From contig JBHGAY010000017.1 of assembly GCA_041946735.1 (NCBI GenBank), positions 1 to 64,000 on the forward strand: a stretch of 64,000 nt of DNA, given 5' to 3'. Position 1 is the first letter of the stretch, and each line of letters begins with the position of its first letter. Positions 58-17,997 of the stretch are shown here, piece after piece. Below the pieces are notes generated by a model that saw nothing but the letters and a program-made list of their open reading frames with translations, was not told where the DNA came from and did not search any database. The stretch comes from Candidatus Eiseniibacteriota bacterium (GTDB lineage: Bacteria > Eisenbacteria > RBG-16-71-46 > CAIMUX01 > VGJL01). Both the position numbers and the translations under genes were made by a program.

Positions 58-81
58 CAGGTCTGATGGAGCATCGAGGGG

Positions 82-175
82 TGAGCGATCGGGGACATAG
101 GTGACAAATCAGTCCGGGGACATGGGTAACACTTGTTTACGGAACATCCGGCCATGAGCGTCTTCGATTCTGAGC
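82..175 (-). mobile_element. IS481-family right end with transposase C-terminal remnant
   Basis: Two near-identical 16-mers, GGGGACATAGGTGACA (91-106) and GGGGACATGGGTAACA (116-131). Minus frame ends LRIEDAHGRMFRKQVLPMSPD*, resembling IS481 transposase C-termini that run into the terminal repeats. Confidence 0.6.
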
Positions 176-182
176 GCTAGGT
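166..182 (+). other. Degenerate attC right half upstream of the DinB cassette
   Basis: GATTCTGAGCGCTAGGT matches 15/17 with the right arm of the attC at 2678-2694 (GATCCTGAGCGCTAGGC). Confidence 0.4.
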
Positions 183-229
183 GGCGAGGAGCAGGTGGGC
201 GCGAACGGCAGGAGGAGGTCAGGGCAGAC

Positions 230-670
230 ATGCGTATTCTCGAGCATCTGTTTCTCGTCGGCGAGTATGCGGAGAGAGCGCACCTATTGTCAGGGTTGAC
301 GCTCGAACAGGTGAATGCCCGGCCAGAGGGCGCGTCACACTCCATCTACGACGAGCTGTGGCATCTTGTGGGATACCAGCAGAGCATCATTGCGCCAGGG
401 GAGCCAATTCCCGACGAGCGGTACCCGACGACCGCACCTGAACGTGAGGATGAATGGCAGCGGCTGGTTCAACTCTTCCTCACCGGGGCCCGCGCAGCCG
501 CTGAGCTGGGAGAGGTGCCTGCGCGCCTAGCCGCCGAACTCGAGCCGGGCGTGACCCTGGCTGACGAGTTGAACTGCGTGGCCGTGCACAACGCATATCA
601 CTTTGGCAAGATCGTCGCTTTGCGCCAACGGATTGGTGCGTGGCCACCCAAGGCGTCAGATGCGCAGTGA
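230..670 (+). CDS. DinB/YfiT family protein
   Basis: HSIYDELWHL...HNAYHFGKI metal-binding His pattern; followed by an attC. Confidence 0.85.
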   Translation: MRILEHLFLVGEYAERAHLLSGLTLEQVNARPEGASHSIYDELWHLVGYQQSIIAPGEPIPDERYPTTAPEREDEWQRLVQLFLTGARAAAELGEVPARLAAELEPGVTLADELNCVAVHNAYHFGKIVALRQRIGAWPPKASDAQ

Positions 671-693
671 TTCGTCGCGTGGTGCTCCGCGTC

Positions 694-796
694 GCCTAAC
701 TCCGCCCTGCAGGCGACGATGACGCGGCACACAATAGGTCGTAAACTGTTCGCGCAGCTCGGCCGCCTGATCGCGCCTTAGCTATCACCGTTAGGC
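694..796 (+). other. Integron attC site (near intact)
   Basis: R'' GCCTAAC 694-700 and R' GTTAGGC 790-796 are exact complements. L'' CT(G)CAGGCG pairs with CGCCTTAG (extrahelical G, one mismatch), with a further inner stem; 103 bp. Confidence 0.8.
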
Positions 797-886
797 AGCG
801 ACCTGGAAGCTTGCTCAAACGACGAAGAGATGCCATGCCGCTCATGCCTTCATCATCGAGTATCACCGCCGCGAATGACGCACCTC

Positions 887-985
887 GGCGAGCCACTTGT
901 AGCCAATGCGGCGGTTCACGCCGTAGCGCTGGCAGAGCTCGGTCATCGTGAAGCGGTCCGCCAGAGCGTCGGTCACGAATTGTCG
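887..985 (-). pseudogene. IS481-family transposase N-terminal HTH fragment
   Basis: RQFVTDALADRFTMTELCQRYGVNRRIGYKWLA resembles the IS481 N-terminal HTH; no start codon and no DDE domain. Confidence 0.7.
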
Positions 986-1032
986 GCCGCCAGGTACTCG
1001 AGAGCCTCCTCGCCACCGACGCGGCGGTCCGC

Positions 1033-1839
1033 GTGATCGCCCGCGAGCCCGATCGTGTCGCGCAGCGAGCACGCGACCGCGTCGACGTCGTGCAGGGATC
1101 ACACGCCGACCCCGCCGTGATCGATGCGGCATTCGAGGGTGCTGACGAAGTCTTCTGGCTGGTACCACCGAACCCACGCGCGGAGAGCGTCGAGGCGGCA
1201 TACGTCGAGTTCACGGTTCCTGCCGCTGCGGCATTCACCCGGCACAACGTCAAGCGAGTCGTCGGCATCTCGGCGCTCGGTCGCGGTACTCCACAGGCGA
1301 GGCACGCGGGGCTCGTCACCGGATCGCTCGCGATGGACGATCTCATCGGGCGCACGGGCGTTGCCTATCGAGCAGTGACCTGTCCGTCATTCATGGACAA
1401 CCTCCTCCGGCAGGTGGACGCGATCAGGAACAGCGGCATGTTCTTCTCGCCGATCGACAGTGACCGAAAACTCCCGAGCTGCGCCACTCGCGACATTGCG
1501 GCGGTCGCCACACGGCTGCTGCTCGACACGTCGTGGACAGGCGCCGGCGAGGCTGCCGTGTTGGGTCCGGAGGATCTGTCATTCACCGATATGGCGCGCA
1601 TCATGACCGATGTGTTAGGCAGGCCGGTGCGCTTCCAGCAAATGTCGTTCGACGCCTACAAGGCGCGATTCGAGGAGCGCGGGATGTCCGAGGTGATGGC
1701 ACAGGCGATGACCGACATGGCATCGGCAAAGAACGAAGGTCTCGACAACGCCGAGCTCCGGACACCGGAGAATACGACGCCCACGCGATTCGAGACCTGG
1801 TGCGAGGAGGTGCTCAAGCCCAGGGTACTTGCTGCCTAA
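1033..1839 (+). CDS. NmrA-like NAD(P)H-binding protein, 5'-truncated (probable pseudogene)
   Basis: NmrA-type fold. The frame extends upstream to ~982 (VGRQVLESLL) but the first Rossmann strand/start is replaced by the IS fragment. Stop codon lies inside GCCTAAC (1834-1840). Confidence 0.75.
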   Translation: MIAREPDRVAQRARDRVDVVQGSHADPAVIDAAFEGADEVFWLVPPNPRAESVEAAYVEFTVPAAAAFTRHNVKRVVGISALGRGTPQARHAGLVTGSLAMDDLIGRTGVAYRAVTCPSFMDNLLRQVDAIRNSGMFFSPIDSDRKLPSCATRDIAAVATRLLLDTSWTGAGEAAVLGPEDLSFTDMARIMTDVLGRPVRFQQMSFDAYKARFEERGMSEVMAQAMTDMASAKNEGLDNAELRTPENTTPTRFETWCEEVLKPRVLAA

Positions 1840-1979
1840 CTAGGTCCGGGCGGTGGGCTCCCCGCATTGGGCGGCTCAATACTGCACGGGGTGCTCGGGG
1901 TGGCATTGCTGGGTGCCTTGGTTGGTCGAGGTCAGCATTCAGAGGGGCAATAGCCCGTCGGAGGGCATACCGGTGCGAA

Positions 1980-2012
1980 GCCTAACACGCGCACATAGCG
2001 AAGCCGTTGGGC
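1980..2012 (+). other. Internally deleted attC remnant
   Basis: GCCTAAC (1980-1986) and GTTGGGC (2006-2012) are only 19 nt apart with no L boxes. Confidence 0.4.
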
Positions 2013-2034
2013 ATCTATGGAAGCGAGGCACGCC

Positions 2035-2637
2035 ATGACCGAGCATATCGAGATTCGTTGGATCAGAGTTGGTATCGTCGGGGGCCTCTGTGCAAGCATC
2101 CTGTACCCGGCTCTGCTGCTCGCACCGCTTCCTCTGCCAATCGCGGCAGCTGTCGCCTCGTTCCTTGGGCCGGCGATCGGTCTGTGCAGTCTTGGCCTCC
2201 ATCGACTCATCAAACTCCATGGCCATTCCGTGACCGCTGCCCTTGGTGCCGTGAGTAACATCGTCGCCGGTGGCCTCTTCACGGCGATGGTGCTGGTGCA
2301 ACTAGCCGTTCGCGCTCGAGCACCGGAGCGGGCCTCCGACCTCGTAGGCGTCTGGCTGGGCCTCGACGTAGCCTGGGACATTTACATTGGCCTTGGCACG
2401 TTGGCCTTTGGCTGGGCCATGTGGCGGCACCCTCGCTTCGGCTGGCCGTTCTCCGCCGTTGGCCTGTTGCTGGGCCTGCTCGTCATCGTGCTCAACCTCA
2501 TCCCATTCCCCACTCCTCCGGCAAGCGCTGGGTCGTTCGATATCGGCCCGTTCGTGGGGGTCTGGTACCTGGCCGTGACGATCCAGGTGTGGCGAAGCCT
2601 CTCCTGGGCGCGTGAACGATGCGGATCGACCGCCTGA
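2035..2637 (+). CDS. Multi-pass membrane protein (DUF4386-like)
   Basis: About 6 hydrophobic segments; GAGG RBS; stop codon overlaps the attC R'' box. Confidence 0.7.
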   Translation: MTEHIEIRWIRVGIVGGLCASILYPALLLAPLPLPIAAAVASFLGPAIGLCSLGLHRLIKLHGHSVTAALGAVSNIVAGGLFTAMVLVQLAVRARAPERASDLVGVWLGLDVAWDIYIGLGTLAFGWAMWRHPRFGWPFSAVGLLLGLLVIVLNLIPFPTPPASAGSFDIGPFVGVWYLAVTIQVWRSLSWARERCGSTA

Positions 2638-2694
2638 CAACATCATGCAGCGGACGGCGCCTCGCGTGCCCGCCGCTGATCCTGAGCGCTAGGC
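2632..2694 (+). other. Integron attC site with mutated core triplets
   Basis: GCCTGAC-AACATC-AT(G)CAGCGG...CCGCTGAT-CCTGAGC-GCTAGGC: perfect L''/L' pairing with an extrahelical G. R boxes carry AAC>GAC and GTT>GCT; 63 bp. Confidence 0.75.
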
Positions 2695-2730
2695 CACCCG
2701 AGAGGCCGGCCGAGATCCACACCGTCGCTT

Positions 2731-2757
2731 CGCCGCCTGCCAACCGGGGCGTTAGGC
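2731..2757 (+). other. Orphan attC right half
   Basis: GTTAGGC at 2751-2757, about 40 nt before the YciI start; no matching left half. Confidence 0.4.
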
Positions 2758-2798
2758 CTCGCGCCGAATTCCGAAACTCACACCCGGAGGACCGAACG

Positions 2799-3140
2799 AT
2801 GACGAAGTACCTTATCTCCTTCCCCGGATCGGCGATGGACATCTCCGACGAAGACATGGCTGCCGTCGGCGAAGCGGCACACGCGGTCATACGCGAGGCG
2901 AAGGATGCAGGCGTTTATGTGTTCAGCGGTGGCATCAACGAGGACGTTGCGCCGCTGATGGTCGCCGCGGACGGCACCGTCACGAATGACACCTACCCGG
3001 AGACCAAGGAGTTCAGCGGCGGCTTCTGTGTCCTGGAACTCCCGTCGCGCGAAGCTGCCGTCCAATGGGCCGCAAAGATCGCCAAAGCCTGCCGCTGCTC
3101 GCAGGAACTTCGCGAGTTCGGGTACGATCCCGAGAGCTGA
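2799..3140 (+). CDS. YciI family (DGPF-domain-like) protein
   Basis: TYPETKEFSGGFCVLELPSREAAVQWAAKI motif; GGAGG RBS. Confidence 0.85.
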   Translation: MTKYLISFPGSAMDISDEDMAAVGEAAHAVIREAKDAGVYVFSGGINEDVAPLMVAADGTVTNDTYPETKEFSGGFCVLELPSREAAVQWAAKIAKACRCSQELREFGYDPES

Positions 3141-3348
3141 GCAGCGAGGTGGGGGACCGATTCGGGAATGCCGACGGCGGGAGGTCGGCTGCCCGTGACT
3201 CGCATAGACAGAGAGCCGGTGACCGACTGCGGCCGAATGGCCGAGAGCACGCGTAAGGAGCGTGGACGTCCGACATGGCTTTGGAGCTGGGAACCAACAT
3301 ATGACTTCGTCTTTCGATGTGAGGCCCGCCTTGACCCATAGGCGAGCC

Positions 3349-4029
3349 ATGGAATCACTGCCGCCTGCGACTACCATTCATGTTCGCGGCCCGCGACCCA
3401 ACGCGAGGCAGCTCGCCTCCGAGATGGCGGATGTAGCCGTCTCGATCCCACTATTCCTGATCACCCCTCTCCTTCGCCCCTGGCACCAACGTTGGGGCGC
3501 TACGGATGCGGAGGTCAGCGCTCCCTTGCCGGGGGATGAGGTGGTGCCCGGATGTCAGTACGTCGTTACACGCGCTGTCAGCGTGAAAGCGCCGCCTGCT
3601 GCGGTATGGCCCTGGCTGGTTCAGATCGGATTCGGTAGAGCCGGGTTCTATTCCAATGATCTCCTCGACAACGCCGGCCATCCGAGCGCCGCGGCGATCC
3701 TGCCAGACCTGCAGGACTTGAAGATCGGGGATTGGATCCCCATGTTCAGGACAGTCAATGACACGACCGCCTTCCGCGTGGCGGAGATCCAATCCGAGCG
3801 AATCCTCGTCTGGGCGAAACCCGACAGTTCCTGGGCATGGGAACTCCGATCGGTCGCCGAAGGCACGCGTCTCGTCACGAGGCTCCGGATCCTTTACCGG
3901 TGGAAGTTCCCGGCGGAGGCCGTGTTCTCGCTCGTGCTCAACGAGTGTGGGGACTTCGCCATGATGCGCAGGATGCTGCTGACACTGAAGCGGCGAGCCG
4001 AAGATCACGCCAGAAAGGCTTCGTCATGA
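3349..4029 (+). CDS. SRPBCC-like hypothetical protein
   Basis: WGATDAEV..LPGD...TRAVSVKAPPAAVWPWLVQIGFGRAGFYS; start uncertain. Confidence 0.7.
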   Translation: MESLPPATTIHVRGPRPNARQLASEMADVAVSIPLFLITPLLRPWHQRWGATDAEVSAPLPGDEVVPGCQYVVTRAVSVKAPPAAVWPWLVQIGFGRAGFYSNDLLDNAGHPSAAAILPDLQDLKIGDWIPMFRTVNDTTAFRVAEIQSERILVWAKPDSSWAWELRSVAEGTRLVTRLRILYRWKFPAEAVFSLVLNECGDFAMMRRMLLTLKRRAEDHARKASS

Positions 4030-4087
4030 GGGAAGATCGGACCCCCGCACATGCGCACGTGCGCGCGCGTCTGACAGGAGGAATCGA

Positions 4088-4825
4088 ATGCGTGGCAAAC
4101 GGATCTTGTCGCTTTCAGGCGCGGAAGTTCAGGAGCATCGCGTTCGACTGAGGCCGTTCGAGCCGGCGCACGGCGACTCCGAACTGATCACCGCGATCTC
4201 GCGCCACATCGAACGGCATGTTGGGCGAGTCGCCAAGGTCCACCATGAGAGCAATTCGGATCTCGTCCACATCGACGTTCATCACGTCGCGCCAACCAGC
4301 GAGCGGCCCTATCACGTGCTGATTACGTCCGGCATGAGCGAGCGCCCGATGCCGGCGCCTCCCGGGGCCGAGAACTGCCGGTTTGCGGAGCTTCTCATCG
4401 CACTTCCTCTTTGGTGGCCGTTGAAGAAGAGCGCCGCGCGGAAGGCCGGGTGGCTTTGGCCGATCCGGGAACTCAGGGCTTGTGCGAGGTTCCCGCATGC
4501 GTTCGATACATGGGTGTGGTACGGCCATACGATCCAGAGCAGCGACGCTGCATCCTATCACCGGTCCGTACGCTTCAACTCCGTTGCGCTCGGTCCGAGC
4601 TATCTCGTCGACCCAGGACTCGCCACTCTCGAGGTCTCGCCCGACCGGGTGGTCTCATTCTTCGCGCTGCATTTCCTCTACCCGGAGGAACTTCAGTTGA
4701 AGATGCGAGTCGGAATCGATGCCGTGTGGGATCTGTTCGAGAAGGATGGCATCTCCGAGATGGTCGATCCGATGCGCAGGAACGTCTGTCGTCCGAGTTC
4801 GTCGCCGCCGAGACGAGGGACCTGA
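4088..4825 (+). CDS. Suppressor-of-fused (SUFU) domain protein
   Basis: SDLVHIDV...LITSGMSERPM...FAEL...GHT...LYPEEL motifs. Confidence 0.8.
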   Translation: MRGKRILSLSGAEVQEHRVRLRPFEPAHGDSELITAISRHIERHVGRVAKVHHESNSDLVHIDVHHVAPTSERPYHVLITSGMSERPMPAPPGAENCRFAELLIALPLWWPLKKSAARKAGWLWPIRELRACARFPHAFDTWVWYGHTIQSSDAASYHRSVRFNSVALGPSYLVDPGLATLEVSPDRVVSFFALHFLYPEELQLKMRVGIDAVWDLFEKDGISEMVDPMRRNVCRPSSSPPRRGT

Positions 4826-5086
4826 CATGCCCCCGTCAGCGGGGGACGGGCGACGGCAAGGCGGCAGCGTATGTAGCCCCCGTGCACCGAACGGGCGGAC
4901 GGGCATCGAATCCACCTGCCCGTGCTGCGTCGAGACGGTGAAGGTCCCTGCAGATTCCGCGTGAACGGAGCCGACACGGGCCCCATCCTCCTTCCGGAGG
5001 GCGTGACTGTCTCGCCGGCCGTGTCTCTCCTTCGGGAGACGCGGCGTGTCAGGCTCACAGGTTTTATCGAAGCCGAGCGATCCGTC

Positions 5087-5166
5087 GCCTGACACACGGT
5101 GCTGCACCGTACGCGGTGATCCCAGCTCTGACACACTTTTGGGCGACGGGCCAGGGTGTCCTAGGC
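5087..5166 (+). other. Highly degenerate attC-like remnant
   Basis: GCCTGAC overlapping the stop of an orphan reading frame, a CTGCACCG/CGGTGA L-like pair, and distal GTCCTAGGC. Confidence 0.3.
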
Positions 5167-5189
5167 CGGTAGAAAGGTTGGTGGAGTCG

Positions 5190-5693
5190 ATGACCGCCGA
5201 AGTCAACCGACTGGACGAGCAGCTCAGGCGGGCGCTCGAGGGCAAGGCTTGGCACGGGCCCTCGGTGCTCGAGCTGCTGGCTGGCGTTTCCGCTGCACAA
5301 GCGGCCGGCCATCCCATCGCAGGTGCGCACAGCATCTGGGAACTGGTGCTTCATCTTTCCAGTGATTACGAAGTGGTGCTCCGGAGATTGGCAGGCGACG
5401 GACGCCCACTCACGGCGGCTGAAGACTGGCCGACCTGTCCGGCGCCGACCGAGGAGAACTGGCAACAGACGGTGCGGGATCTCACCCGACGGAACGAAGA
5501 GCTGCGGCGGGCCGTGCGGGCTTTTCCGGAGGAACGCTTGGACGACCTCCTCGTAGCCGCATCGCCCTACACCGCCTACACGCAGTTCATCGGCGTCACT
5601 CAGCACAACCTCTATCACGCGGGCCAGATCGCGTTGCTGAAGCGCGCCTTTGCATCAGCTACGAAAGCCAGCACGACCGGCGAGGAGACCTGA
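5190..5693 (+). CDS. DinB family protein
   Basis: AWHGPSV...HSIWELVLHL...HNLYHAGQIALLK; ends in ACCTGAC-AGCCG-CTGCAG (attC left-half-like). Confidence 0.88.
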   Translation: MTAEVNRLDEQLRRALEGKAWHGPSVLELLAGVSAAQAAGHPIAGAHSIWELVLHLSSDYEVVLRRLAGDGRPLTAAEDWPTCPAPTEENWQQTVRDLTRRNEELRRAVRAFPEERLDDLLVAASPYTAYTQFIGVTQHNLYHAGQIALLKRAFASATKASTTGEET

Positions 5694-5727
5694 CAGCCGC
5701 TGCAGTCGGAACAGGAGGTCTTACCGG

Positions 5728-6279
5728 ATGCGACCCCTTAGGTATTCCATCAACGTCACACTGGACGGTTGCTGCGACCATCGCATGATGATCGCGGACG
5801 AGCAGATTCACATCCACGCGATCGAGAACCTCGACCGGGCCGACGCCCTCCTCTTTGGCCGGGTGACGTACGAGATGATGGAGGCAGGATGGCGATCTCC
5901 GGCGGCGATGGAGGCGATGCCGGATTGGACGAGACCCTTCGCCCGGAAGATCGACGCGGCGAAGAAGTACGTCGTGTCGAGCACCCTGAAGAAAGTCGAC
6001 TGGAATGCCGAGCTGCTGCGCGGGGACCTGGGAAAGGCTGTGCAGCAGCTCAAGCAAGAGCCGGGCAAGGGACTGCTGGTGGGAGGCGTCACCCTGCCGC
6101 TCGCCTTGACGGAGTTGGGATTGATCGACGAGTACGAGTTCGTGGTGCACCCCAGATTGGCCGGCCGTGGGCCGACGTTGTTCTCGGGATTGTCGCACCT
6201 TGTCGACCTGAGGCTCGTGAGCCGCCTGGAGTTCGGCTCGGGGGCGGTGGCGATGCGGTATGAGCGAAGACAAAGTTGA
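5728..6279 (+). CDS. Dihydrofolate reductase-like (RibD C-terminal) protein
   Basis: NVTLDG...LLFGRVTYEM...GLIDEYEFVVHPRLAGRG; AGGAGG RBS. Confidence 0.88.
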   Translation: MRPLRYSINVTLDGCCDHRMMIADEQIHIHAIENLDRADALLFGRVTYEMMEAGWRSPAAMEAMPDWTRPFARKIDAAKKYVVSSTLKKVDWNAELLRGDLGKAVQQLKQEPGKGLLVGGVTLPLALTELGLIDEYEFVVHPRLAGRGPTLFSGLSHLVDLRLVSRLEFGSGAVAMRYERRQS

Positions 6280-6381
6280 CGCGATTTCGTGGATCCCGCC
6301 GACAGGTGATGCCTGCGCTAGAAAGCAGCGCCACTCGGTCCAGCCGAGGTAGATCGATCGCGTCGCATGAGGAGCGTACCC

Positions 6382-6834
6382 ATGAGAGAGTCGACCCTCT
6401 TCGAAAGCCTCGGTGGAGCTGCGGGCGTGCTCAGGCTCGCGCAAGCATGGCACGAGTGCGTTCTGAAGGACGAGGTCGTCGCCCACGCCTTCAGCCACGG
6501 CTTCCACCCTCAGCACACCGAACGCCTCGCCGCGTATTGGGGTGAGGCCTTGGGCGGCCCGCCGACCTATAGCGAACGATATGGCAACGAGTCCCACGTC
6601 GTTCGTCTGCACAGCGGGAACGGCGTTCATGAGGAAATGGATCGTCGTGCAATTGACTGCTTCGACCAAGCGATGGACCTGATCGGGCTTACCGATCCTG
6701 ATCTCCGCCGCGCGCTTCATGACTACTTTGCGTGGGCGACAACCACATCGATGATGGCATACCCCGAGGACGCCGGTCGCGTCCCGGACGATCTACGTCT
6801 CCCGCGATGGTCGTGGGACGGATTGCAGCCCTGA
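6382..6834 (+). CDS. Group II truncated hemoglobin
   Basis: TLFESLGG...HTERLAAYWGEALGGP..YS...H; GAGGAG RBS. Confidence 0.85.
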   Translation: MRESTLFESLGGAAGVLRLAQAWHECVLKDEVVAHAFSHGFHPQHTERLAAYWGEALGGPPTYSERYGNESHVVRLHSGNGVHEEMDRRAIDCFDQAMDLIGLTDPDLRRALHDYFAWATTTSMMAYPEDAGRVPDDLRLPRWSWDGLQP

Positions 6835-6844
6835 CGATCGGATC

Positions 6845-7168
6845 GACTCCGTCGTCATCGGCTACTCGCCGACGGGCCGAGGAAACGAGGCAATCGTCGC
6901 GATCGCCGCCCGCGTCGACGGTGTGTATCTGTACCTGTCGCACGGACCGCAGCTGCCCGACCCGAAGAAGCTTCTGCAGGGATCCGGAAAGCAGACCCGC
7001 TTCATGCGAATCGAGGGAGCCAGCCAGTTGGGAGATCCGGACGTGGAGGCGCTGATTGTCGCGGCGAATGATCGCGCGACGGTTCCCGTGCCCTCCAGCG
7101 GGACGGGGAAGCTCATCATCCAGTCGTCTGCATCCAAACGGCGACCGCGCAGCACGCCCACGGAGTGA
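6845..7168 (+). pseudogene. DUF1801-like protein, 5'-truncated
   Basis: DSVVIGYSPTGRG..AIVAI...LPDPKKLLQGSGKQTRF; frame starts abruptly just after the hemoglobin stop with no RBS. Confidence 0.6.
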
Positions 7169-7278
7169 CGGCAGGCATTGGCCAGGGACGCGCTACGGCA
7201 GGCCACTGGCGGGGAGGAGTAGCAGTCGATCCTGCGCCTCCTGGCAGGATTCGTCATCCGACCTTCGAGAGGTAAATC

Positions 7279-7917: not shown

Positions 7918-8049
7918 GGGCAGCATGGCATGGCGCTTTCACCGGTGAGGTATCACTACGCTGCGACCTGCCGGCAGAATGCCGGAATCGCTGGACGGCA
8001 TCTGGACCGCAACGCCGCACGTCCATGACCCAAGAGAAACGGGGCGAGC

Positions 8050-8939: not shown

Positions 8940-8957
8940 CGGAGCTTGGAGGAGAGC

Positions 8958-9581: not shown

Positions 9582-9681
9582 GGGAGGACGGTGGCGCTGA
9601 GCAAGCGGCGCGAGGCTATGCGCTCGGCTGTCGCGATCGGGCGCGAGGTAATCCCGCGGACGAGCACTACGGAGGGGCAAG

Positions 9682-10071: not shown

Positions 10072-10186
10072 GACTCCGCTGCTCCATCAGCAGAAGGAAC
10101 CTCGGGGCGCTTCGCGCCGGACGGGAGCCTGAGTGTTACGCAACGTATGCGTATGCTGGGAGCATGGGATCAGGGAGCCCTACGCT

Positions 10187-10984
10187 ATGAATGATCGCTG
10201 GGCGGACGCTCTGGCTTATGACGCCTTCATGGGACGATGGAGCCGCGAACTGGGTCGTGCATTCGTGCCGTGGTTGGGCGTACCTCAGGCGCGCCACTGG
10301 CTCGAGATCGGATGCGGAACCGGCGCTCTTACGCGCAGCATTTGCGAGCTGACGGACCCCACATCGGTTGTCGCTACGGATCTGTCCGAGACGTTTGTCT
10401 CGCACGCGCGGGTCCACTTTCCCGATCCACGCGTGCAATACGCGGTCGCGAGCATGGCCACACTCCCGGCCTGGCCAAGCGGCTACGACGCCGTCGCTTC
10501 TCTGCTGGTTCTCAACTTCCTGCCCGATCCACCGGCAGCACTTGGGATGATGAGGGACCTGTCCGCAGCAGGCGGCACGGTGGGTGCGTGCGTCTGGGAC
10601 TACGCCGACGGCATGGGGATGCTCCGGTACTTCTGGGACGTTGCCGTCGAACTCGATCCATCCGTCCGTGAGTTGGATGAGGGCGTGCGTTTCCCCATCT
10701 GTTCCAGAAGCGTGCTCGAAGCGGCATTCCGGGGAGCGGGTCTATCGCGCGTTCAGGTGGAACCTCTCGAGATCGAGATGCAGTTCCCGAGCTTCGAGGA
10801 CTACTGGCGACCGTTCGTTGGCGGCACTGGTCCAGCGCCGAGCTACTTGTCTTCGCTCGGTGTCGAGCACCGGGGGGTATTGGCCCGCCGGCTCCAGCGC
10901 CGTTTGCCTCGAGCAAGGGATGGGAGCATATCGCTGCCTGCGAGAGCGTGGGCAGCCAGAGGCCGTCGGGAAGGCACTGCCTGA
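10187..10984 (+). CDS. Class I SAM-dependent methyltransferase
   Basis: YDAFMGRWS...LEIGCGTGAL motif I. Confidence 0.88.
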   Translation: MNDRWADALAYDAFMGRWSRELGRAFVPWLGVPQARHWLEIGCGTGALTRSICELTDPTSVVATDLSETFVSHARVHFPDPRVQYAVASMATLPAWPSGYDAVASLLVLNFLPDPPAALGMMRDLSAAGGTVGACVWDYADGMGMLRYFWDVAVELDPSVRELDEGVRFPICSRSVLEAAFRGAGLSRVQVEPLEIEMQFPSFEDYWRPFVGGTGPAPSYLSSLGVEHRGVLARRLQRRLPRARDGSISLPARAWAARGRREGTA

Positions 10985-11047
10985 AAGTCTGGGGCAGTGG
11001 TGGCAGCGAATGTTGGATCCCCAAAGGAAGGAGAGGAGAAGGCGACA

Positions 11048-11389
11048 ATGAGCAACGGACACGTGGAGCCCCAGACGAAAGGTGTTACGGTGAAGTTACT
11101 TACGACGGTTGACCTCGGCCCTGAGATCGAGGGCATGGCAGGGCGGCAACTTCGAATGCGCATGGTGACCATCGATCCTGGAGGAGTCTTCGGTCCGGTT
11201 CACGACCATAAGGGCAGACCAGGCACCGTGTACATACTGCAAGGGACGATCACGGACCATCGCAATGGAGTCGCTACGGACTACGGTCCGGGGGTGGGCT
11301 GGCCTGAGGACAGAAACACTCTGCACTGGCTGGAGAACAGAGGAGCGATTCCAGCGGTAGAGATCTCGGTCGACATAGTCAGGCCCTAG
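11048..11389 (+). CDS. Cupin domain protein
   Basis: PGG..GPVHDH..RPGTVYILQG...HWLENRG. Confidence 0.85.
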   Translation: MSNGHVEPQTKGVTVKLLTTVDLGPEIEGMAGRQLRMRMVTIDPGGVFGPVHDHKGRPGTVYILQGTITDHRNGVATDYGPGVGWPEDRNTLHWLENRGAIPAVEISVDIVRP

Positions 11390-11567
11390 TCACCCGAAGC
11401 CGTGGCCGTAACCTCATTCTCCTCGACCACCTGATCAATGGCGGCACCCTTCGGCGGCGCCCTTCAGCGTAGTGGAAGTCGCCTCAACGGGGTACAATCA
11501 GAGGCGCCCAGGTTCACCCGGGCGGAAATTCATGGGACCGAACGCGAGGATTTGAGAGGCGACAACC

Positions 11568-12062
11568 ATGACGCGAATGCTCGTTGTTGCACTTCTCCTG
11601 CTGGCCGCCGCTCCGGCCCAGGCGCAGGTCTGCTGGTTCTTCGAGGCATACCTCCGCGGGGACGAGGTCGTACCTCCGACGGGCAGCCAGGCGCTCGTCG
11701 ACTACCTGTCCAACTTCAGCTCCTGCAGCGTCTGCCCGGAATGGACGGACGATCCGTACACGATCACGATCAACATGTGGGAGCCGCTCGAAGGTGGCGC
11801 TCCGTTCTCGCTGGATATCTGCCGCGGCGCTCGCGGGACGAACGGCCCGGCAATTCATCACCTCGAGCTTACGACCATACCGTTCCAGACGCAGATCGAG
11901 TTCGACGAATCGCAGTGCGAGGCTCTTCGAGACACGCTCTTGTACGTCGTCCTCAGGACGAGGAGCTATCCCGAAGGCGAAGTACGGGGTCAGATCATTC
12001 CGCAGGCACCGCATTCCGTAGGCCAGGCGACATGGGGGACCCTCCGCGGTTCCTATCGTTGA
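11568..12062 (+). CDS. Secreted CHRD-like domain protein with C-terminal TWG motif
   Basis: Signal peptide; AYLRGDEVVPP...GARGTNGP...LYVVLRTRSYPEGEVRGQI; ends TWGTLRGSYR. Confidence 0.75.
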   Translation: MTRMLVVALLLLAAAPAQAQVCWFFEAYLRGDEVVPPTGSQALVDYLSNFSSCSVCPEWTDDPYTITINMWEPLEGGAPFSLDICRGARGTNGPAIHHLELTTIPFQTQIEFDESQCEALRDTLLYVVLRTRSYPEGEVRGQIIPQAPHSVGQATWGTLRGSYR

Positions 12063-12200
12063 GCCACCGACTGGTATTGCGACGGAGTGGGAGAAGTTCA
12101 GTGGGGGTACATCTGCGGCGGTCTGCATCGGCTCCTGAACTACGATCTTCCCGTGGCGGCGAAGAACACGACGTGGGGGAAGGTTCGGAATCTCTTTTGA
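12063..12200 (+). pseudogene. Orphan C-terminal remnant of a TWG-motif protein
   Basis: In frame after the CHRD stop: ATDWYCDGVGEVQWGYICGGLHRLLNYDLPVAAKNTTWGKVRNLF*; no start. Confidence 0.55.
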
Positions 12201-12273
12201 AGCGGTGAGCAACGACGCTGATGAGGTACGACGTAGCGTCCGCTAGGCGGAAGCGACACGGAAAGGAGTGAAC

Positions 12274-12852
12274 ATGCCAGGCCGCCACCTCTTGATTCTC
12301 ATGGCATCGCTCCTGGCGGTGCTGCCTACATATTCCGATGGCGCAATGGACGGCTACCTCGAAGCGGGCATCCTCTCGCGGGACCCCTACGACATGTGCG
12401 ACGGGCTCTGGGTTCCCGGGGAGCAGCAGTGGTACAAGATCGACAACTTCGGGACGTTCGCGCTCGGAGATACGGTCGTCGTGACCGCGGCTACCATGGA
12501 GGAGTACCTCTGCAACGACTACAACACCTACTCCTACCTGCCCGGCAACACGATCGCGGCGTGGCGCGGCCTGGATCTAGGCTGCGGGGTGGTCCTCGTC
12601 GACCCGGAGTACGGGTGTAAAGGCTTCGAGTCGCCTCTCTACGGGGTCTTCACCATCCTCGACGGCCTCGGTGGCTTCGTTCAAGGTGACTCCGCGCATG
12701 TCTGGGGGAACGCAAGCCTGGAGGAGTGCATGATGATCCCGGAGTGCGGATTCGGATACTGCTTCTATGTCACCAGAGCCGTCGCATGCCCGGACTCCGG
12801 CAGCGCGACGCGTCCCTGCTCATGGGGAAGGCTTCGCGGCTTGTTCCGGTAG
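12274..12852 (+). CDS. Secreted Cys-rich hypothetical protein with C-terminal SWG motif
   Basis: AAGGAG RBS, signal peptide, ends SWGRLRGLFR; preceded by GCTAGGC (12242-12248). Confidence 0.75.
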   Translation: MPGRHLLILMASLLAVLPTYSDGAMDGYLEAGILSRDPYDMCDGLWVPGEQQWYKIDNFGTFALGDTVVVTAATMEEYLCNDYNTYSYLPGNTIAAWRGLDLGCGVVLVDPEYGCKGFESPLYGVFTILDGLGGFVQGDSAHVWGNASLEECMMIPECGFGYCFYVTRAVACPDSGSATRPCSWGRLRGLFR

Positions 12853-12942
12853 CGCTACACGAAGAGCAGGGTAGCTGGGTCGTCCAATCCGACGACGCCC
12901 ACCCGCCGGTAAGGCGGGCATCGATCTCGAGGAGGGCCAGAC

Positions 12943-13329
12943 ATGAGGAGAGTGACCGGCATCGGTGGCGTGTTCTTCAAGGCCAAAGACCCAAAGGCAC
13001 TTGCCGAGTGGTACCGCGTCCATCTCGGCATGAACGTCGAGGACTGGGGCGGCGTGGTCTTCCGTTGGGCGTCGCCGGAAAACCCCGCGGGCACGGGCAC
13101 GACGATCTGGACCCCGTTCCCGGAGGACACCTCCTATTTCGGTCCGAGTCAGGCGAGCTTCATGGTGAACTTCCGCGTCGAAGATCTGCACGGCCTGCTG
13201 GCTGCGCTCCGGGCCGAAGGCTGCCAGGTCGAAGAGAAGACCGAGGAGTCCGAATACGGGAAGTTTGGCTGGGTGGTCGACCCCGAAGGCAACAAGCTCG
13301 AGCTCTGGCAGCCGCCCCAGGGATCCTGA
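12943..13329 (+). CDS. VOC/glyoxalase family protein
   Basis: RVTGIGGVFFKAKDP...YGKFGWVVDPEGNKLELWQP. Confidence 0.9.
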   Translation: MRRVTGIGGVFFKAKDPKALAEWYRVHLGMNVEDWGGVVFRWASPENPAGTGTTIWTPFPEDTSYFGPSQASFMVNFRVEDLHGLLAALRAEGCQVEEKTEESEYGKFGWVVDPEGNKLELWQPPQGS

Positions 13330-13567
13330 GCGACCGGGCGGCGACGCCGAGTCGCCACCAAGTCGCCTCAATGACGACGCTCTCCATCGCTCTTTCAAGC
13401 CGCGGGTCACCCCCGAGTAGCGACCGCACGAATCACATCCCGGCATCTTGACACGGATCCACCGAAGACGTTCACTTGGATGCCGTTCGACAAGCTGCTC
13501 CTTACACCGGTCCACGGTGGCCGAGAGGAATCTGCCGACCGAGACTGTCCAAGGAAGGCACCCGCCC

Positions 13568-14626
13568 ATGAAGAACACGCGCATCGTCGTCACTCGGTAC
13601 GGCGGCCCGGACGTGCTTCAGGTGGTCGAAGAAGAGTGCCCCGAGCCGAAGCACGGTGAAGTACGGGTGAGGGTGCAGGCGGCCGGCGTCTCCTTGCCCG
13701 ACATCATGGCGCGCGAGGGCACTCATCCCGAGACCCCCCGAGTGCCCTTCACGCCGGGGTGGGATCTGGTTGGCGCGGTGGATCGGCTCGGCGAGGGCGT
13801 CTCTGGATTCGAGCCGGGTCAGACCGTTGTCGCGATGCCGATCCATGGCGCATACGCGGAGTTCGTTTGTCTGCCGCAAGAGGAACTCGTTGTTGTGCCG
13901 CCCGGCCTGGACGCTGCCGAGGCTGTCAGCCTCGTGTTGAACTACATCACAGCCCACCAGATGATGCACCGGTCGGCCAAGGTCGAGCGGGGCCAGCGAG
14001 TGTTGATTCATGGCGCGGCAGGCGGAGTCGGCACGGCACTGTTGCAGCTTGGGCTTCTGGCCGATCTGGAGATGTACGGGACCTGTTCCTCACGAGGGGC
14101 GTCGGTCGTTTCCGGCCTCGGCGGCATCCCGATCGACTACCGGGATCAGGACTTCGTGGAAGAGATTCATCGATTCACCGGGGATGGCGTCGACGTCGTC
14201 TTCGATCCGATCGGTGGCGCGCATCTCTGGCGGTCCCGCAAGGCTCTCCGTCGTGGCGGCAGGGTGGTGGGCTATGGTCTTCTAACTTCGTTGCGTGGAG
14301 AAGGCTTGGGTTCCGGCCGTCCAGGGAGTCGTCAACGGTTTCGCGGGACCGCCACCTTCGTGTTGTACATCGCCGGTGGCTGGCTCCTTCCGGGACGGAA
14401 GCGGGTGGTCCCTTACAGCATCCAGACGCTCAAGCGACTGAAGCCGGCATGGTTCAGACAGGATTTGATGACCTTGTTCGATCTCCTTCGCGAGCAGAAG
14501 GTCAAGCCGCTGATTGCGGGGCGATTTCCGATCGCCGAGGCGCGACAGGCGCAGGAGCTGCTCGGGAAGGGTGGCGTCGCCGGCAAGATCGTGCTGGTGG
14601 GCAAGGGAGACGCCGCAGCGACGTAA
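13568..14626 (+). CDS. Medium-chain dehydrogenase/reductase (quinone oxidoreductase-like)
   Basis: YGGPDVL...PFTPGWDLVG...LIHGAAGGVG...GKIVL. Confidence 0.9.
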   Translation: MKNTRIVVTRYGGPDVLQVVEEECPEPKHGEVRVRVQAAGVSLPDIMAREGTHPETPRVPFTPGWDLVGAVDRLGEGVSGFEPGQTVVAMPIHGAYAEFVCLPQEELVVVPPGLDAAEAVSLVLNYITAHQMMHRSAKVERGQRVLIHGAAGGVGTALLQLGLLADLEMYGTCSSRGASVVSGLGGIPIDYRDQDFVEEIHRFTGDGVDVVFDPIGGAHLWRSRKALRRGGRVVGYGLLTSLRGEGLGSGRPGSRQRFRGTATFVLYIAGGWLLPGRKRVVPYSIQTLKRLKPAWFRQDLMTLFDLLREQKVKPLIAGRFPIAEARQAQELLGKGGVAGKIVLVGKGDAAAT

Positions 14627-14707
14627 CGGCCGCACGCTGCGGTTCGCGTCGCAGTCTCTGAGCCTGACGCCCAGCGTTTGAGCGCCATTCCCCAGAAGGG
14701 GGTGAGC

Positions 14708-14974
14708 ATGAGCACGGCTTTCCTGGTCCTGGCGGTTCTGTGCGCGCTCTGGGGAGTGGTGAACGCGATCCTGATCGTCGCCGCACTGCAGAGACGTGGC
14801 ATCCACGTCAACCTGCTCCTGCTTCGGCTGGACTTCTTTCGACATCTGACCCAGTACAGGACGCTGACTTTCAGCGAAACCGGCAGGGTCGGTCCTCTCT
14901 ACTACTCCTATCTCATCGCGATGAGCGTTGCGCTGCTGTCTGTCGCAATCGCCTTGATCCTCCGCGTGAGCTAG
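14708..14974 (+). CDS. Small two-TM hypothetical protein
   Basis: Two hydrophobic segments; RBS-like sequence upstream. Confidence 0.6.
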   Translation: MSTAFLVLAVLCALWGVVNAILIVAALQRRGIHVNLLLLRLDFFRHLTQYRTLTFSETGRVGPLYYSYLIAMSVALLSVAIALILRVS

Positions 14975-14995
14975 GACGCACGACGGACGGTCATC

Positions 14996-15736
14996 ATGGC
15001 GAGCAGTGGCCAGAGACGGAAGCGCAGGGGCGGCCATCGACCGGAGCTAGCCGGTGTGCTCGGCCTCGCTGTCCTTCTCTCGACAGCGTCGGGGATATCG
15101 CTCGGCCAGCCGCAGACCACGTCCTTGATCGGCGCAGAGGCGCGTGTCTTCGCATCGACGCTGCCGATCCTGCCCGCGAGGGGATTCTTCTACTCGGTGG
15201 ATTCCGCCGCTGTGGTCCTTCAACTGAAGCCGGACTACGCCGAGCAGTTGCAGATCCATGGCTTCCGCGTGCACATCCTCTCGTTGCAGGAGCATGAGAT
15301 CGGGAGTCTCGCCAGCATGCGCGCGGCCCTTTCCGAGGGAGAGGAGCCCATTGTGGTCGAATTGTCGCCCGGCCAAGGGGATTCGCGTGCGGCGGTTCGG
15401 CGGACCCGGCTTCTCTTCTTGAAGCCGGAGGACGTCCTCAGCGCGGATGTCCTACGTGATCGGAAGAGCCGTGTCGGTCGAGGTGCCCTCATTGGCCTTT
15501 GCGGAGGCGCATTGGTCGGCGCGGCGATCGGCTACGCGACCTACGACGAGCATCGAGATTGCCCGCCTGACGAATGGTGCCTCCGGATCCTCGATCGCGA
15601 CGACACGACGCTCGTCGGCGCCCTCGCGGGAGCCGTTGTAGGATTGGTCGTCGGAGGGGCCATCGGAGCGGCTAGTCCAGCGGAGCGCTGGGAGCCAGTA
15701 GCACTTCAGGTTTCGGGTGATGGGGCGGGCTACTGA
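14996..15736 (+). CDS. Hypothetical protein with C-terminal glycine-zipper segments
   Basis: GALIGLCGGALVGAAIG and GALAGAVVGLVVGGAIG segments. Confidence 0.6.
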   Translation: MASSGQRRKRRGGHRPELAGVLGLAVLLSTASGISLGQPQTTSLIGAEARVFASTLPILPARGFFYSVDSAAVVLQLKPDYAEQLQIHGFRVHILSLQEHEIGSLASMRAALSEGEEPIVVELSPGQGDSRAAVRRTRLLFLKPEDVLSADVLRDRKSRVGRGALIGLCGGALVGAAIGYATYDEHRDCPPDEWCLRILDRDDTTLVGALAGAVVGLVVGGAIGAASPAERWEPVALQVSGDGAGY

Positions 15737-15750
15737 CGGAGGGAGGTCGA

Positions 15751-16689
15751 ATGGGAACCGGTGGACAGGGGACCAGATTGGACAACTTGAAGCAGCCGCC
15801 CTTCAATACAACGATGATGGGCGTGCTCAAGGGAGTCGCGGACTACTACGGACTGGACCTGGATGCCGCCACGGTCTATGGACTTTCGGGTCACGCCTTC
15901 CTGATCAACATCCATACCCAGATCTGCCCGAGCGGTCCGTATGTCTGGAAGCAGGAGAACGCGCGGCCACTGATCGAAGGAATGGGCCTGAGGATGGTGG
16001 ACCTCGGGTTCTTTGACGCAGGAGCGAAGGAAAGCGAGCGGGCCGAGGTCGAGGGCAGGCTGTACGCCGCGCTGGACCGCGCGATCCCGTGTTCCTTGGT
16101 CAACCTCGAGAACCAGATCCTGACCGGGTACGACAGGACGGGGTTCTTCTGCGCCCAGCCGTGGGCGCCGAAGATCGAGTTCCCGCCGGGAAGGCTGACG
16201 TTCGGGTCGTGGGAGGAACTCGGCAAGGAATTCCACGTCGACTTCTACGCGATCGAGAGGGCGCATCCTGTCGGGCGTCGGGAGGCGATCCGTGCGAGCC
16301 TGGAGTACGCGATCGACCTGTGGACGCACCCGTCCGCGCATAGCATGCCGGGCTATGGCGTGGGACCGAGCGCCTACGACAACTGGATCGCCGCGGTTCC
16401 GGAATCCGGTTCCAGCCACGGCAACTGGTGGAACGCCACCGTGTGGGGCGAGTGTCGCCGCATGGCGGCCGAGTACTTCGCGGCGATCGCGAAGGGCGAC
16501 GGAAGTGTTGCGGGCATTTGCGAGCCGCTGAGTGGCGCGTATCGGCGGATCGCCGAGAATCTTGAGAAGGCGAGCAGCAAGACGATGGATGCGGGCGAGA
16601 AGGTCGACCTGTTGAGGCAGGCGAAGGTCCTGGAGGCCGGGGCGGTGGAGAAGATCGAGAAGCTGGCCGAGGCTTTGCGCGCTGGGTGA
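15751..16689 (+). CDS. Hypothetical protein (loosely BtrH-N-like)
   Basis: Long ORF with a strong GGAGG RBS; YGLSGHAF...CPSGP motif; family uncertain. Confidence 0.65.
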   Translation: MGTGGQGTRLDNLKQPPFNTTMMGVLKGVADYYGLDLDAATVYGLSGHAFLINIHTQICPSGPYVWKQENARPLIEGMGLRMVDLGFFDAGAKESERAEVEGRLYAALDRAIPCSLVNLENQILTGYDRTGFFCAQPWAPKIEFPPGRLTFGSWEELGKEFHVDFYAIERAHPVGRREAIRASLEYAIDLWTHPSAHSMPGYGVGPSAYDNWIAAVPESGSSHGNWWNATVWGECRRMAAEYFAAIAKGDGSVAGICEPLSGAYRRIAENLEKASSKTMDAGEKVDLLRQAKVLEAGAVEKIEKLAEALRAG

Positions 16690-16723
16690 GAAAGGCCGGC
16701 CGGCTCGCCAGGAGCGGAACGCC

Positions 16724-17389
16724 ATGTCGTACTACTCCGACCGACTCTCGGCCGAGCGCCTTCAGCGCTGCTATGAGCTTGCCACGCCGGAAGTCCAGGC
16801 GTACCTCGAGGCGGAAATTCAGTACCTGCTCGCGGCGATCGCGCCCGGCGACCGGGTGCTGGAGCTCGGCTGCGGCTACGGCCGCGTGCTTTCCCGCCTT
16901 GCCGAACGCACGAATCGGATCATGGGGCTCGACCTCTCGATTGCCAGTTTGCGTCACGCGCGGGAGATCCTCGATCCGCGACGGGTCGGCCTGATAAGGG
17001 GCGATGCAGCGACGCCTTGCTTCCGCAGCTCCTCCTTCGATCTTGTCTGTTGCCCGCAGAACGGCATCTCAGCTCTTCACGTCGACCAGCGCTCCCTCAT
17101 CGTCTCGGCCGTCGGGTTGGTGGTTCCGGGCGGCAATGCGGTCTTCTTCAGTTATGCGGACACATTCTGGCGGCATCGCCTCGAATGGTTCCGCATCCAG
17201 GCGGCGCATGGCCTCATCGGCGAGATCGACGAGCGCGCGACGGCCAACGGAACGATCGTCTGCAAAGACGGCTTCGTCGCGACGACCGTCGCTCCGGAGC
17301 GCTTCCTCGAGTTGAGTCAGGGACTTGGCCGGAGCGTCTCCGTCTCGGAGCTCGCCGGCTCGAGCGTCGTTTGCTCGATCACCGTCTAG
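16724..17389 (+). CDS. Class I SAM-dependent methyltransferase
   Basis: VLELGCGYGR motif I, GLDLS. Confidence 0.85.
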   Translation: MSYYSDRLSAERLQRCYELATPEVQAYLEAEIQYLLAAIAPGDRVLELGCGYGRVLSRLAERTNRIMGLDLSIASLRHAREILDPRRVGLIRGDAATPCFRSSSFDLVCCPQNGISALHVDQRSLIVSAVGLVVPGGNAVFFSYADTFWRHRLEWFRIQAAHGLIGEIDERATANGTIVCKDGFVATTVAPERFLELSQGLGRSVSVSELAGSSVVCSITV

Positions 17390-17418
17390 CGGCACGCCAG
17401 GTGCCCCGGAGGTTTCGT

Positions 17419-17781
17419 ATGGAGAGTCCTGACGACAAGCAGAGTGATCAGAACCAGCTCGTCCGCTCGGACGACGTGCCGTGGAGGCCGCTCGACGAGC
17501 CGGGTGTGCAAGGGGTCTTCGTGAAGGTCTTGCGACGCGACCCAGTGGCCCGCAGAGCCCGCACGATCCTGCTGAAGTTCGAGGCAGGAACGACGTACCC
17601 GGCGCACAATCACCCGAGCGGAGAGGAGGTCTACGTCCTGCAGGGTGACATCACGCTGGGCAAGGACCGCCTGCGAGCCGGGGACTTCCTGTACACGGCT
17701 CCCGATGGCAAGCATGCCGTCCACACCGAGGGGGGCTGCGTGATCCTGGTGGTTGTGCCGGAGGAGGTGGAGCGCCTGTAG
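17419..17781 (+). CDS. ChrR-like cupin domain protein
   Basis: YPAHNHPSGEEVYVLQG...GDFLYTAPDGKH...GC. Confidence 0.82.
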   Translation: MESPDDKQSDQNQLVRSDDVPWRPLDEPGVQGVFVKVLRRDPVARRARTILLKFEAGTTYPAHNHPSGEEVYVLQGDITLGKDRLRAGDFLYTAPDGKHAVHTEGGCVILVVVPEEVERL

Positions 17782-17997
17782 CGGCGTAGGCGGCATCCCG
17801 CGCGAATGCCCCGCCAGTACTTCGTCCAGTACGTGCGGGTTAGCTCCGAAGCGGTCCTCGAGCTGCCTCTGGGTGCAGGATCCGACATCCGCAATCGCCC
17901 TGGACCGTCCTCGGCCGCCCAGGTGCTATGATCCTTGCGCTACGAACGAGAAGCGCAGAGCGAGTCCGACGATTCGAATCGAAGGGAGGATCCGGCC

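Follow-up and report, generated by a model that had tools for sequence, protein, structure and literature searches.

A probable remnant of a chromosomal integron cassette array, with attC sites in several states of decay, in a Candidatus Eisenbacteria draft genome

We analysed the first 64 kb of contig C9 (hereafter the window) from a Candidatus Eisenbacteria draft genome (G000; 4.89 Mb in 72 contigs, 94.8% complete). The left part of the window carries a block of short genes which, from position 59 to about 13.3 kb and possibly up to 17.8 kb, is very probably a relic of a chromosomal array of integron cassettes, left in a genome with a dead integron integrase (IntI). In agreement with an initial annotation that had counted about 25 short plus-strand genes, we found about 26 short open reading frames (ORFs) between 230 and 17,781 (Table 1), all on the plus strand and with a coding-like GC content by codon position. 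The GC content of the first 20 kb is about 0.635, against about 0.685 for the genome, and the heptamers GCCTAAC/GTTAGGC are found six times within 694-2757, and no other contig has more than three. Synteny with three same-family genomes (G004:C1, G005:C17 and G003:C73; 72-80% DNA identity) extends from 26.8 kb onward, which connects the block on the left to core genes of the host. The contig begins at nucleotide (nt) 1 within the end of an IS3-family insertion sequence (IS), and there is consequently no readable sequence upstream.

A DNA search of window positions 1-18,000 against 30 relatives returned single window genes, scattered and in other orders, and an element of about 60 nt resembling 2630-2695 that was repeated in many of these genomes. 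Integron integrases were scored with the NCBIfam model TIGR02249, which has a curated cut-off of 265 bits. Matches above this cut-off were obtained in four of the five relatives tested and in none of 14 control genomes. The proteins of G004 (431.9 bits) and G005 (447.1 bits) are both full-length over model positions 1-315; that of G025 scores 397.9 bits, with its last ~30 residues, including the conserved C-terminal motif, in another frame, and the only match above the cut-off in G019 (284 bits) is in two pieces, a cut-down intI on another contig (C9 of G019) than its array. G004, G005 and G025 are relatives within the family and order of the host.

DNA beside the IntI genes was collected and the relatives' repeats were gathered by iterated nhmmer. 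Two attC covariance models were made from them, R1 from 28 relatives' sites, none of which came from this genome, and R2 from 93 relatives' sites. The 28-site consensus, GCCTAAC-AA-CCGGTT-G-CAGCGG-a-CGG...CCG-CCGCTG-AACCGG-AGC-GTTAGGC, combines RYYYAAC/GTTRRRY boxes and an unpaired spacer with a variable loop and a stem in which two bases bulge from the R''-L'' arm. On the written structure 87% of the cells were paired, as compared to 72.8% in shuffles, and sliding the partners gave 27-40%; 15 of the 22 pairs change on both sides, and the covariation score was matched by 0 of 500 shuffles. In the relatives' loci R1 gave 106 matches at E <=0.1, with 93 at E <=0.001 (32 in G004, 47 in G019:C3, 7 in G025, 4 in G005:C15 and 3 elsewhere), and these 93 sites lie on a single strand within every array. 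The arrays start 2.2 kb past the intI stop in G004 and about 3 kb past intI in G025, on the same strand as intI in both. One site of G005:C15 (L033:4039-4101, after a YCII cassette) matches the attC regions of class-1 integron resistance cassettes, aadB/ant(2'')-Ia among others; of the 3643 plasmid records hit, most are 80-90% identical and 26 reach 90% or more. This match provides an independent tie to characterised attC sites, and it means that environmental Eisenbacteria arrays share an attC sequence type with clinical cassettes. The relatives' repeats used for the models are genuine attC sites.

Among the relatives, the array of G019 (C3:1-50 kb, L035-L037) comprises 47 attCs of 64-120 nt that fall into several length classes on one strand. 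In G025:C42, where IntI lies at L031:18324-19904, only seven model-level attCs are spread over ~31 kb, and beyond them cassette-type homologues extend for another ~20 kb in which no attCs occur, possibly a second array in decay. A conserved chromosomal location of the integron was considered and abandoned, since the intI flanks of G000, G004, G005 and G025 have no neighbours in common.

The genes of the block were compared with the cassettes of these arrays by tblastn (E <1e-5). Homologues within attC-bounded spans of four relatives' arrays were found for 11 of the 26 genes, versus none of 32 control ORFs from 20.7-64 kb (11,760 amino acids in total), and the cupin gene, with its homologue in G022, beyond the four-array test, is the twelfth with a cassette counterpart. 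For the genes in 5728-10071, the amino acid identities to attC-bounded cassettes were 76% and 87% (two RibD_C genes, G004), 49% (G005) and 85% (G019). The top cassette identities, those of the DinB, RibD_C and SnoaL genes, are to genomes of other genera and families. In G004 the counterpart of window 5713-6265 is followed by that of 229-796 and then by that of 7269-7919, the order in G005:C15 is different again, and no neighbouring genes are shared in 25 other loci holding homologues. The window genes recur as single attC-bounded units in different orders, the pattern by which cassette origin was judged. The integron-array origin proposed in the initial annotation is thereby borne out: the genes are found in relatives' attC arrays near IntI, and the comparison of gene order revealed shuffling between genomes with no conserved neighbours.

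Next to these homologies stand the attC sites of the window itself, which was scanned with the filters off over 64 kb on both strands (a search space of 128 kb). One full-length match was obtained with both models at 2630-2696 (R1 65 bits, E 1.7e-14; R2 56 bits, E 8e-12), so that the attC previously suggested at 2632-2694 passed the covariance-model check. Its hairpin has the L box, the bulged bases on the R''-L'' arm and the R/L spacer; the L-box pairs are standard save two in the outer stem, and two inner R-box pairs are non-standard. The core AAC/GTT is lacking, as R'' reads GCCTGAC and R' reads GCTAGGC, with GAC/GCT at the crossover triplets. The site at 2630-2696 is an unambiguous, though mutated, full-length attC of the lineage type. 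Genome-wide (4.9 Mb) there are only two model-level attCs, this one and C53:3491-3556 (44 bits), and a blastn search of window 2622-2765 against plasmids gave no match.

The second full-length site, at 694-796 (103 nt), has the exact core boxes GCCTAAC at 694-700 and GTTAGGC at 790-796. It is the second-best match of R2 in the window (692-798, 14.7 bits, E 0.22, full-length alignment) and scores 5.3 bits with R1. Its alignment partner in G004 is the attC (L027:17834-17939) of the same DinB cassette, with 80% column identity over the compared stretch; the G004 counterpart scores 31 bits, which indicates that most of the stem signal is gone from the window copy. The alignment suggests that 694-796 is the long-type attC of the DinB cassette, with R''/R' intact and the L box weakened. 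For the candidate sites, single-strand folding gave z-scores from -0.5 to 0.3, equal to shuffles, and fold energy is therefore not discriminating, either way. Rfam gave no match over the whole window at gathering thresholds, and none at E <=1 on 1-3300.

Four stubs in the first 2.8 kb (Table 1) would be attC sites from which the hairpin has been deleted. Apart from the two full-length sites, R1 and R2 matches scored 8-11 bits at E >1 over the window (137-184, 1832-1874, 1978-2014, 2733-2759 and 9594-9643). The stub at 139-182 aligns with a 64-nt attC of G005 (L033:3560-3623), minus its centre, and its GCTAGGT aligns with the R' (GTTAGGC) that precedes the G004 DinB cassette. Several relatives' sites have AACCGG in both arms, and the 27-nt stub at 2733-2759, which reads CCGCCTGCC-AACCGG-GGC-GTTAGGC, would be the product expected from a deletion between such repeats. 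Further downstream, the half-site at 5687-5712 lacks, relative to G004, the L'-R' half and ~20 nt of the cassette start, while 18 of 23 positions equal the consensus; the sequence after the stop at 7917, itself mutated, aligns with the R'' of the G004 attC; and GTTGGAT at 11012 is matched in the alignment by the R' that precedes the same cupin cassette of G022. The decayed site after the SnoaL gene (10064-10141) has no significant R1 or R2 match.

The weak sites called in the initial annotation did not all fare alike. Its half-sites at 166-182 and 2751-2757 correspond to an R' with a counterpart in G004 and to the R' of the 27-nt stub, respectively. The sites at 1834-1840 and 1980-2012 are stubs that fit by position and strand (the former as 1834-1874) but reach only 8.6-10.5 bits, with E >2. 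Among the weaker traces, 5688-5710, 10066-10141 and 11012-11018 were recovered by comparison with G004, G019 and G022, and one around 14662 matches the 3'-half profile described below; those at 5087-5166, 9596-9616 (8.4-9 bits, E >6) and 12242-12248 did not rise above noise. The remark that several stop codons fall inside RYCTRAC held up, as this applies to 4 of the 26 genes (stops at 1839, 2637, 4825 and 5693) versus 91 of 6388 proxy ORFs elsewhere (1.4%; P 5e-4). The same is true for the decay of the array, with recognisable sites only in the first 2.8 kb and with triplets mutated or hairpins deleted.

A profile hidden Markov model (HMM) of the L'-R' half, the 3'-half HMM, was scanned genome-wide and matches of at least 6 bits were counted. 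On C9:1-18,000 it gave four plus-strand matches (166-183, 2670-2694, 2742-2757 and 14664-14680) versus 0.20 expected, and none on the minus strand. The weak sites are not above chance individually; jointly they do better, with some support.

No TIGR02249 match above the cut-off, and hence no intI of a complete integron, was found in this genome, and all IntI matches lie on contigs other than that of the window. The best integron-type match, C27:53327-53614, which marks the only integron-type integrase gene of the assembly, covers model positions 1-60 and 278-315 only. It belongs to a 129-residue ORF (C27:53246-53635; ΔintI) which, when aligned with the IntI proteins of G004 and G005, has lost ~217 central residues in frame, including the segment with the family-specific insertion. 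The lost segment presumably also held the catalytic box residues. Contig C27 ends 70 nt past the ΔintI stop.

Mobile elements and deletions have left their marks on the block as well, and IS and deletion scars have truncated genes in it (Table 1). The 58-nt repeat at the left end of the window is also present at the ends of C53, C6, C39 and C55, and with 88% identity at the end of C48; in G004:C2 it runs on into an ORF start of type MGRPSRYSPEVRERAVRM, which we take to be that of an IS3 element. The minus-strand fragment of ~35 residues beside the NmrA-like gene is presumably the N-terminus of an IS481-type transposase. An exact 26-nt metagenome scan with window 169-194 for a left end free of the IS gave no matches. 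Behind the same IS3 end, C53:1-4100 (L044) is a second low-GC stretch (~0.60) with four plus-strand ORFs, including a TIR-domain gene; its 44-bit attC is followed by an abrupt change to a GC content of 0.71 and by an SNF2-type helicase gene, and the stretch is probably the far end of an array.

The evidence backs an array from window 59 to ~13,330. Within it different states of decay occur side by side: a mutated full-length site, a site with intact boxes and a weak stem, four stubs without a hairpin, fused half-sites, and junctions too short for a site. Recognisable sites are restricted to the first 2.8 kb and most junctions have none. In the original state, as suggested by the relatives, IntI would have been encoded upstream on the same strand as the cassettes, would have inserted promoterless one-gene cassettes at attI and would have excised them through recombination at G|TT between folded attC sites. 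Once the hairpins were no longer under selection by a recombinase, they could have been lost by point mutation and slippage deletions, at 2733-2759 perhaps by a deletion between the AACCGG repeats of the two arms, and the cassettes would now be fixed as an ordinary co-oriented gene block. Tentatively, the block may represent a 'fossil array', a decay stage invisible to attC finders in which hairpins are lost preferentially by slippage between short arm repeats after the death of IntI, and in which mobile promoterless cassettes turn into a fixed co-oriented block of 13-18 kb that the host keeps as ordinary genes; we consider this wider proposal possible though rather doubtful.

Clusters of attC sites lacking an integron integrase are known as CALINs in IntegronFinder (Cury et al. 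2016, PMC4889954; Néron et al. 2022, PMC9024848), and Cury et al. proposed that they arise by integrase loss. In the same study intI pseudogenes were present within 10 kb of 15 of 279 CALINs, and 38% of the CALINs had a neighbouring IS (PMC4889954). The block resembles a CALIN in having attC sites and cassettes of one orientation but no integrase close by, in the IS at its edge and in the intI pseudogene of the genome. It differs in that this pseudogene is on another contig and in that most of the array has lost the attC sites too: detection by attC sites would pick up the first 2.8 kb at most, whereas the remainder is recognised solely by homology to relatives' cassettes. With one significant and one borderline attC 1.8 kb apart, plus four stubs, in the R1/R2 scans, the window is a borderline CALIN by strict site counts, which call for at least two clustered attCs.

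There are also parallels with the sedentary chromosomal integrons, since G004 and G019 have 32 and 47 similar lineage-specific attCs, respectively; the window differs from these in having no working integrase or attI. The likeness to the 'inverted integrase group' named in PMC3575428 is one of gene layout alone: in G004 and G025, intI precedes its cassettes in the same orientation. This layout would also suit the position left of nt 1 that the initial annotation proposed for attI/intI. A canonical attC consists of R''-L''...L'-R' with extrahelical bases, an unpaired central spacer and a variable terminal structure (PMC12614218). All of these parts are found in the relatives' consensus and in 2630-2696, and 694-796 has an exact RYYYAAC/GTTRRRY, while the departures from the canonical form are the GAC/GCT at 2630-2696, the weakened L box at 694-796 and the absence of a hairpin from the four stubs. 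We regard the element as real but ordinary: a degraded chromosomal integron array, of a known kind, in which the states of decay are well resolved. A full-text search found no published paper with both 'Eisenbacteria' and 'integron'. What goes beyond the usual CALIN description is that most junctions are free of sites and that, as far as the full-text search shows, the phylum is new in print.

For this phylum, the large chromosomal integrons of Candidatus Eisenbacteria genomes are a record in themselves. A single stretch with graded decay states, in a genome with a dead integrase, offers material on how cassettes become fixed host genes and on how fast attCs vanish once selection stops. About 10 kb of cassette-derived genes are invisible to attC-based detection here. 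If fossil arrays of the kind proposed above are general, former arrays could account for many of the islands of small 'miscellaneous' genes seen in environmental genomes, and integrons would have given chromosomes far more fixed genes than CALIN counts suggest.

Several observations weigh against an array remnant with a dead integrase. Only 2630-2696 is significant with R1, the other sites not being so singly, and the stubs and traces all score 6-11 bits, the noise level over 128 kb. The description of 694-796 as near-perfect in the initial annotation is overstated in view of its covariance scores and of its fold, which at a z-score of 0.3 does not surpass shuffled sequence. In 20 further relatives' loci with homologues of window genes, an attC was nearby in only one, which shows that these gene families also occur outside detectable arrays. 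The GC content at third codon positions (GC3), a trend in which would be a sign of older cassettes on the right, does not change significantly with position in the block (rho 0.31, p 0.13), and the genes right of 13.4 kb have no cassette homologues in relatives' arrays. As to the integrase, an attempt to connect C27, and with it ΔintI, to C9 through shared contig ends yielded no link, the end of C27 being unique in the assembly. Across relatives, integrase state and attC density do not track cleanly: G019 combines 47 good sites with a cut-down intI, so that a damaged integrase does not predict attC loss in every genome. Finally, in a draft of this completeness and fragmentation, an intact intI or more arrays could be unassembled.

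The strongest alternative concerns the extent of the relic. Going rightwards, cassette homologues were last found for the gene that ends at 13,329, and the chance that the relic ends near there, with 13.5-17.8 kb being an ordinary accessory flank that never consisted of cassettes, falls only a little short of even. The genes of this flank have no homologues inside relatives' arrays; their homologues are 44-52% identical at the amino acid level and lie in attC-free contexts with different neighbours, and their GC3 of 0.74-0.84 is nearer to that of core genes. Against a separate origin, the flank shares strand, tight spacing and low overall GC content (~0.64 over 13568-17781) with the block to its left, an L'-R'-like trace (14664-14680) sits exactly in an intergenic gap, and the neighbours are not conserved in any relative examined. 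With strand, spacing, GC content and this trace as hints, whether 13.5-17.8 kb were once cassettes, in which case they may be the oldest of the array, is about evenly balanced. Directly after the block and on the same strand, window 17935-20220 encodes a 761-residue protein that combines five LVIVD repeats with an FlgD-Ig-like domain at its C-terminus; a homologue (27% identical) is encoded inside the span of the G004 array (L028:4325-6151).

It is much less probable that the window holds a still-working CALIN, in which 694-796 and perhaps 2630-2696 are recombined in trans by an intact IntI missed in the draft. The exact core boxes at 694-796 and the fragmented, 94.8% complete genome would allow for this, and half of the CALINs studied were in genomes encoding IntI elsewhere (PMC4889954). 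The assembly, however, has no TIGR02249 match above the cut-off and only two model-level attCs in 4.9 Mb, the best of which has GAC/GCT for AAC/GTT, and most junctions have no site whatever. A non-integron island of generic small stress-type genes with unrelated intergenic palindromes, of the repetitive extragenic palindromic (REP) or miniature inverted-repeat transposable element (MITE) kind, is already disfavoured and very improbable: it would fit the many junctions without a repeat and the ubiquity of the DinB, RibD_C, YCII and cupin families, but the repeat family has attC architecture and covariation, forms arrays beside IntI genes and has a member that matches clinical integron attCs, and single cassettes of other genera, shuffled in their order, have 76-87% identity to window genes.

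Table 1. Features of the left part of the window, in order of position. aa, amino acid identity; IS, insertion sequence; R1 and R2, covariance models; HTH, helix-turn-helix.
Feature	Position	Strand	Remarks
Terminal repeat of IS3-family element	1-58	-	Element left of nt 1, orfA start reads leftwards; truncates the array
Tail of IS-cut cassette	59-138	+	Holds most of the 91-nt module 86-176
attC stub (candidate)	139-182	+	R'' ACGGAAC ... R' GCTAGGT, central hairpin gone; R1 10.1 bits, 3'-half HMM 6.6 bits
DinB_2 cassette gene	230-670	+	Pfam PF12867; 84% aa to attC-bounded G004 L027:17371-17796, 85% to G021:C424
attC (probable)	694-796	+	See text
HTH-like fragment (scar), ~35 residues	~870-975	-	From translation; beside N-truncated NmrA-like gene
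N-truncated NmrA-like gene	1033-1839	+	Pfam NAD_binding_10 match starts at profile position 25 of 184
attC stub (candidate)	1834-1874	+	GCCTAAC ... ATTGGGC, stop TAA within R''; R1 and R2 8.6 bits, not significant alone
attC stub (candidate)	1980-2012	+	GCCTAAC, 19 nt, GTTGGGC; R2 10.5 bits, E 2.7; R1 8.0 bits
Cassette gene without Pfam family	2017-2637	+	GC3 0.73, coding-like; product hydrophobic-looking on reading the DNA; stop TGA in GCCTGAC
attC	2630-2696	+	See text
attC stub (candidate)	2733-2759	+	R1 10.8 bits, 38 model positions skipped; 3'-half HMM 8.3 bits
YCII	2799-3140	+	Pfam; 62% aa to G005 cassette
No family assigned	3262-4029	+	Cassette-type gene
SUFU-like	4088-4825	+	Pfam; stop in ACCTGAC
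DinB_2 (second)	~5199-5693	+	Pfam; 76% identical to G021:C251; stop in ACCTGAC
R''-L'' half-site fused to leader of RibD_C cassette	5687-5712	+	From alignment with G004 L027:16560-16700
RibD_C	5728-6279	+	Pfam
Globin	6367-6834	+	Pfam
No family assigned	6923-7168	+	Cassette-type gene
RibD_C	7279-7917	+	Pfam
VOC/glyoxalase	8050-8355	+	Pfam; in-frame internal loss of ~138 nt, present in G005
OmdA/YdeI	8352-8939	+	Pfam
RibD_C	8946-9581	+	Pfam
SnoaL	9682-10071	+	Pfam; 85% aa to G019 attC-bounded cassette
Decayed attC after SnoaL gene (candidate)	10064-10141	+	Ends GTTACGC; homologous to attC-like site after G019 SnoaL cassette (ends GTTGGGC)
Methyltransferase	10133-10984	+	Pfam
Junction of 41 nt	10978-11018	+	Ends in R' GTTGGAT (11012-11018)
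Cupin	11031-11389	+	Pfam; 83% aa to G022 cassette between attCs of 44.5 and 19.9 bits
CHRD	11568-12062	+	Pfam
No family assigned	12268-12852	+	Cassette-type gene
Glyoxalase	12943-13329	+	Pfam; 61% identical to G004 cassette
Zinc-type alcohol dehydrogenase (ADH)	13568-14626	+	Block right of the cassette-supported part
L'-R'-like trace	14664-14680	+	7.7 bits on 3'-half HMM; within intergenic gap
Small ORF	14678-14974	+	
Gly-zipper protein	14996-15736	+	
No family assigned	15751-16689	+	
Methyltransferase	16724-17389	+	
ChrR-type cupin	17419-17781	+	

Two longer ORFs at 11438-12208 and 12726-13451 were rejected as being in the wrong frame (GC3 ~0.52), and the CHRD and glyoxalase genes listed in Table 1 were kept instead. 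At the left edge of the block, the module at 86-176 consists of two GGGGACAT(A/G)GGT(G/A)AC sub-repeats. No Rfam family matches it, and its fold is not unusually stable. The module is 95% identical to a sequence on G003:C175, in another genus, and is also present near contig ends in G006; its part 86-152 is 87% identical to G005:C15:3509-3575, which lies directly 5' of an attC there.

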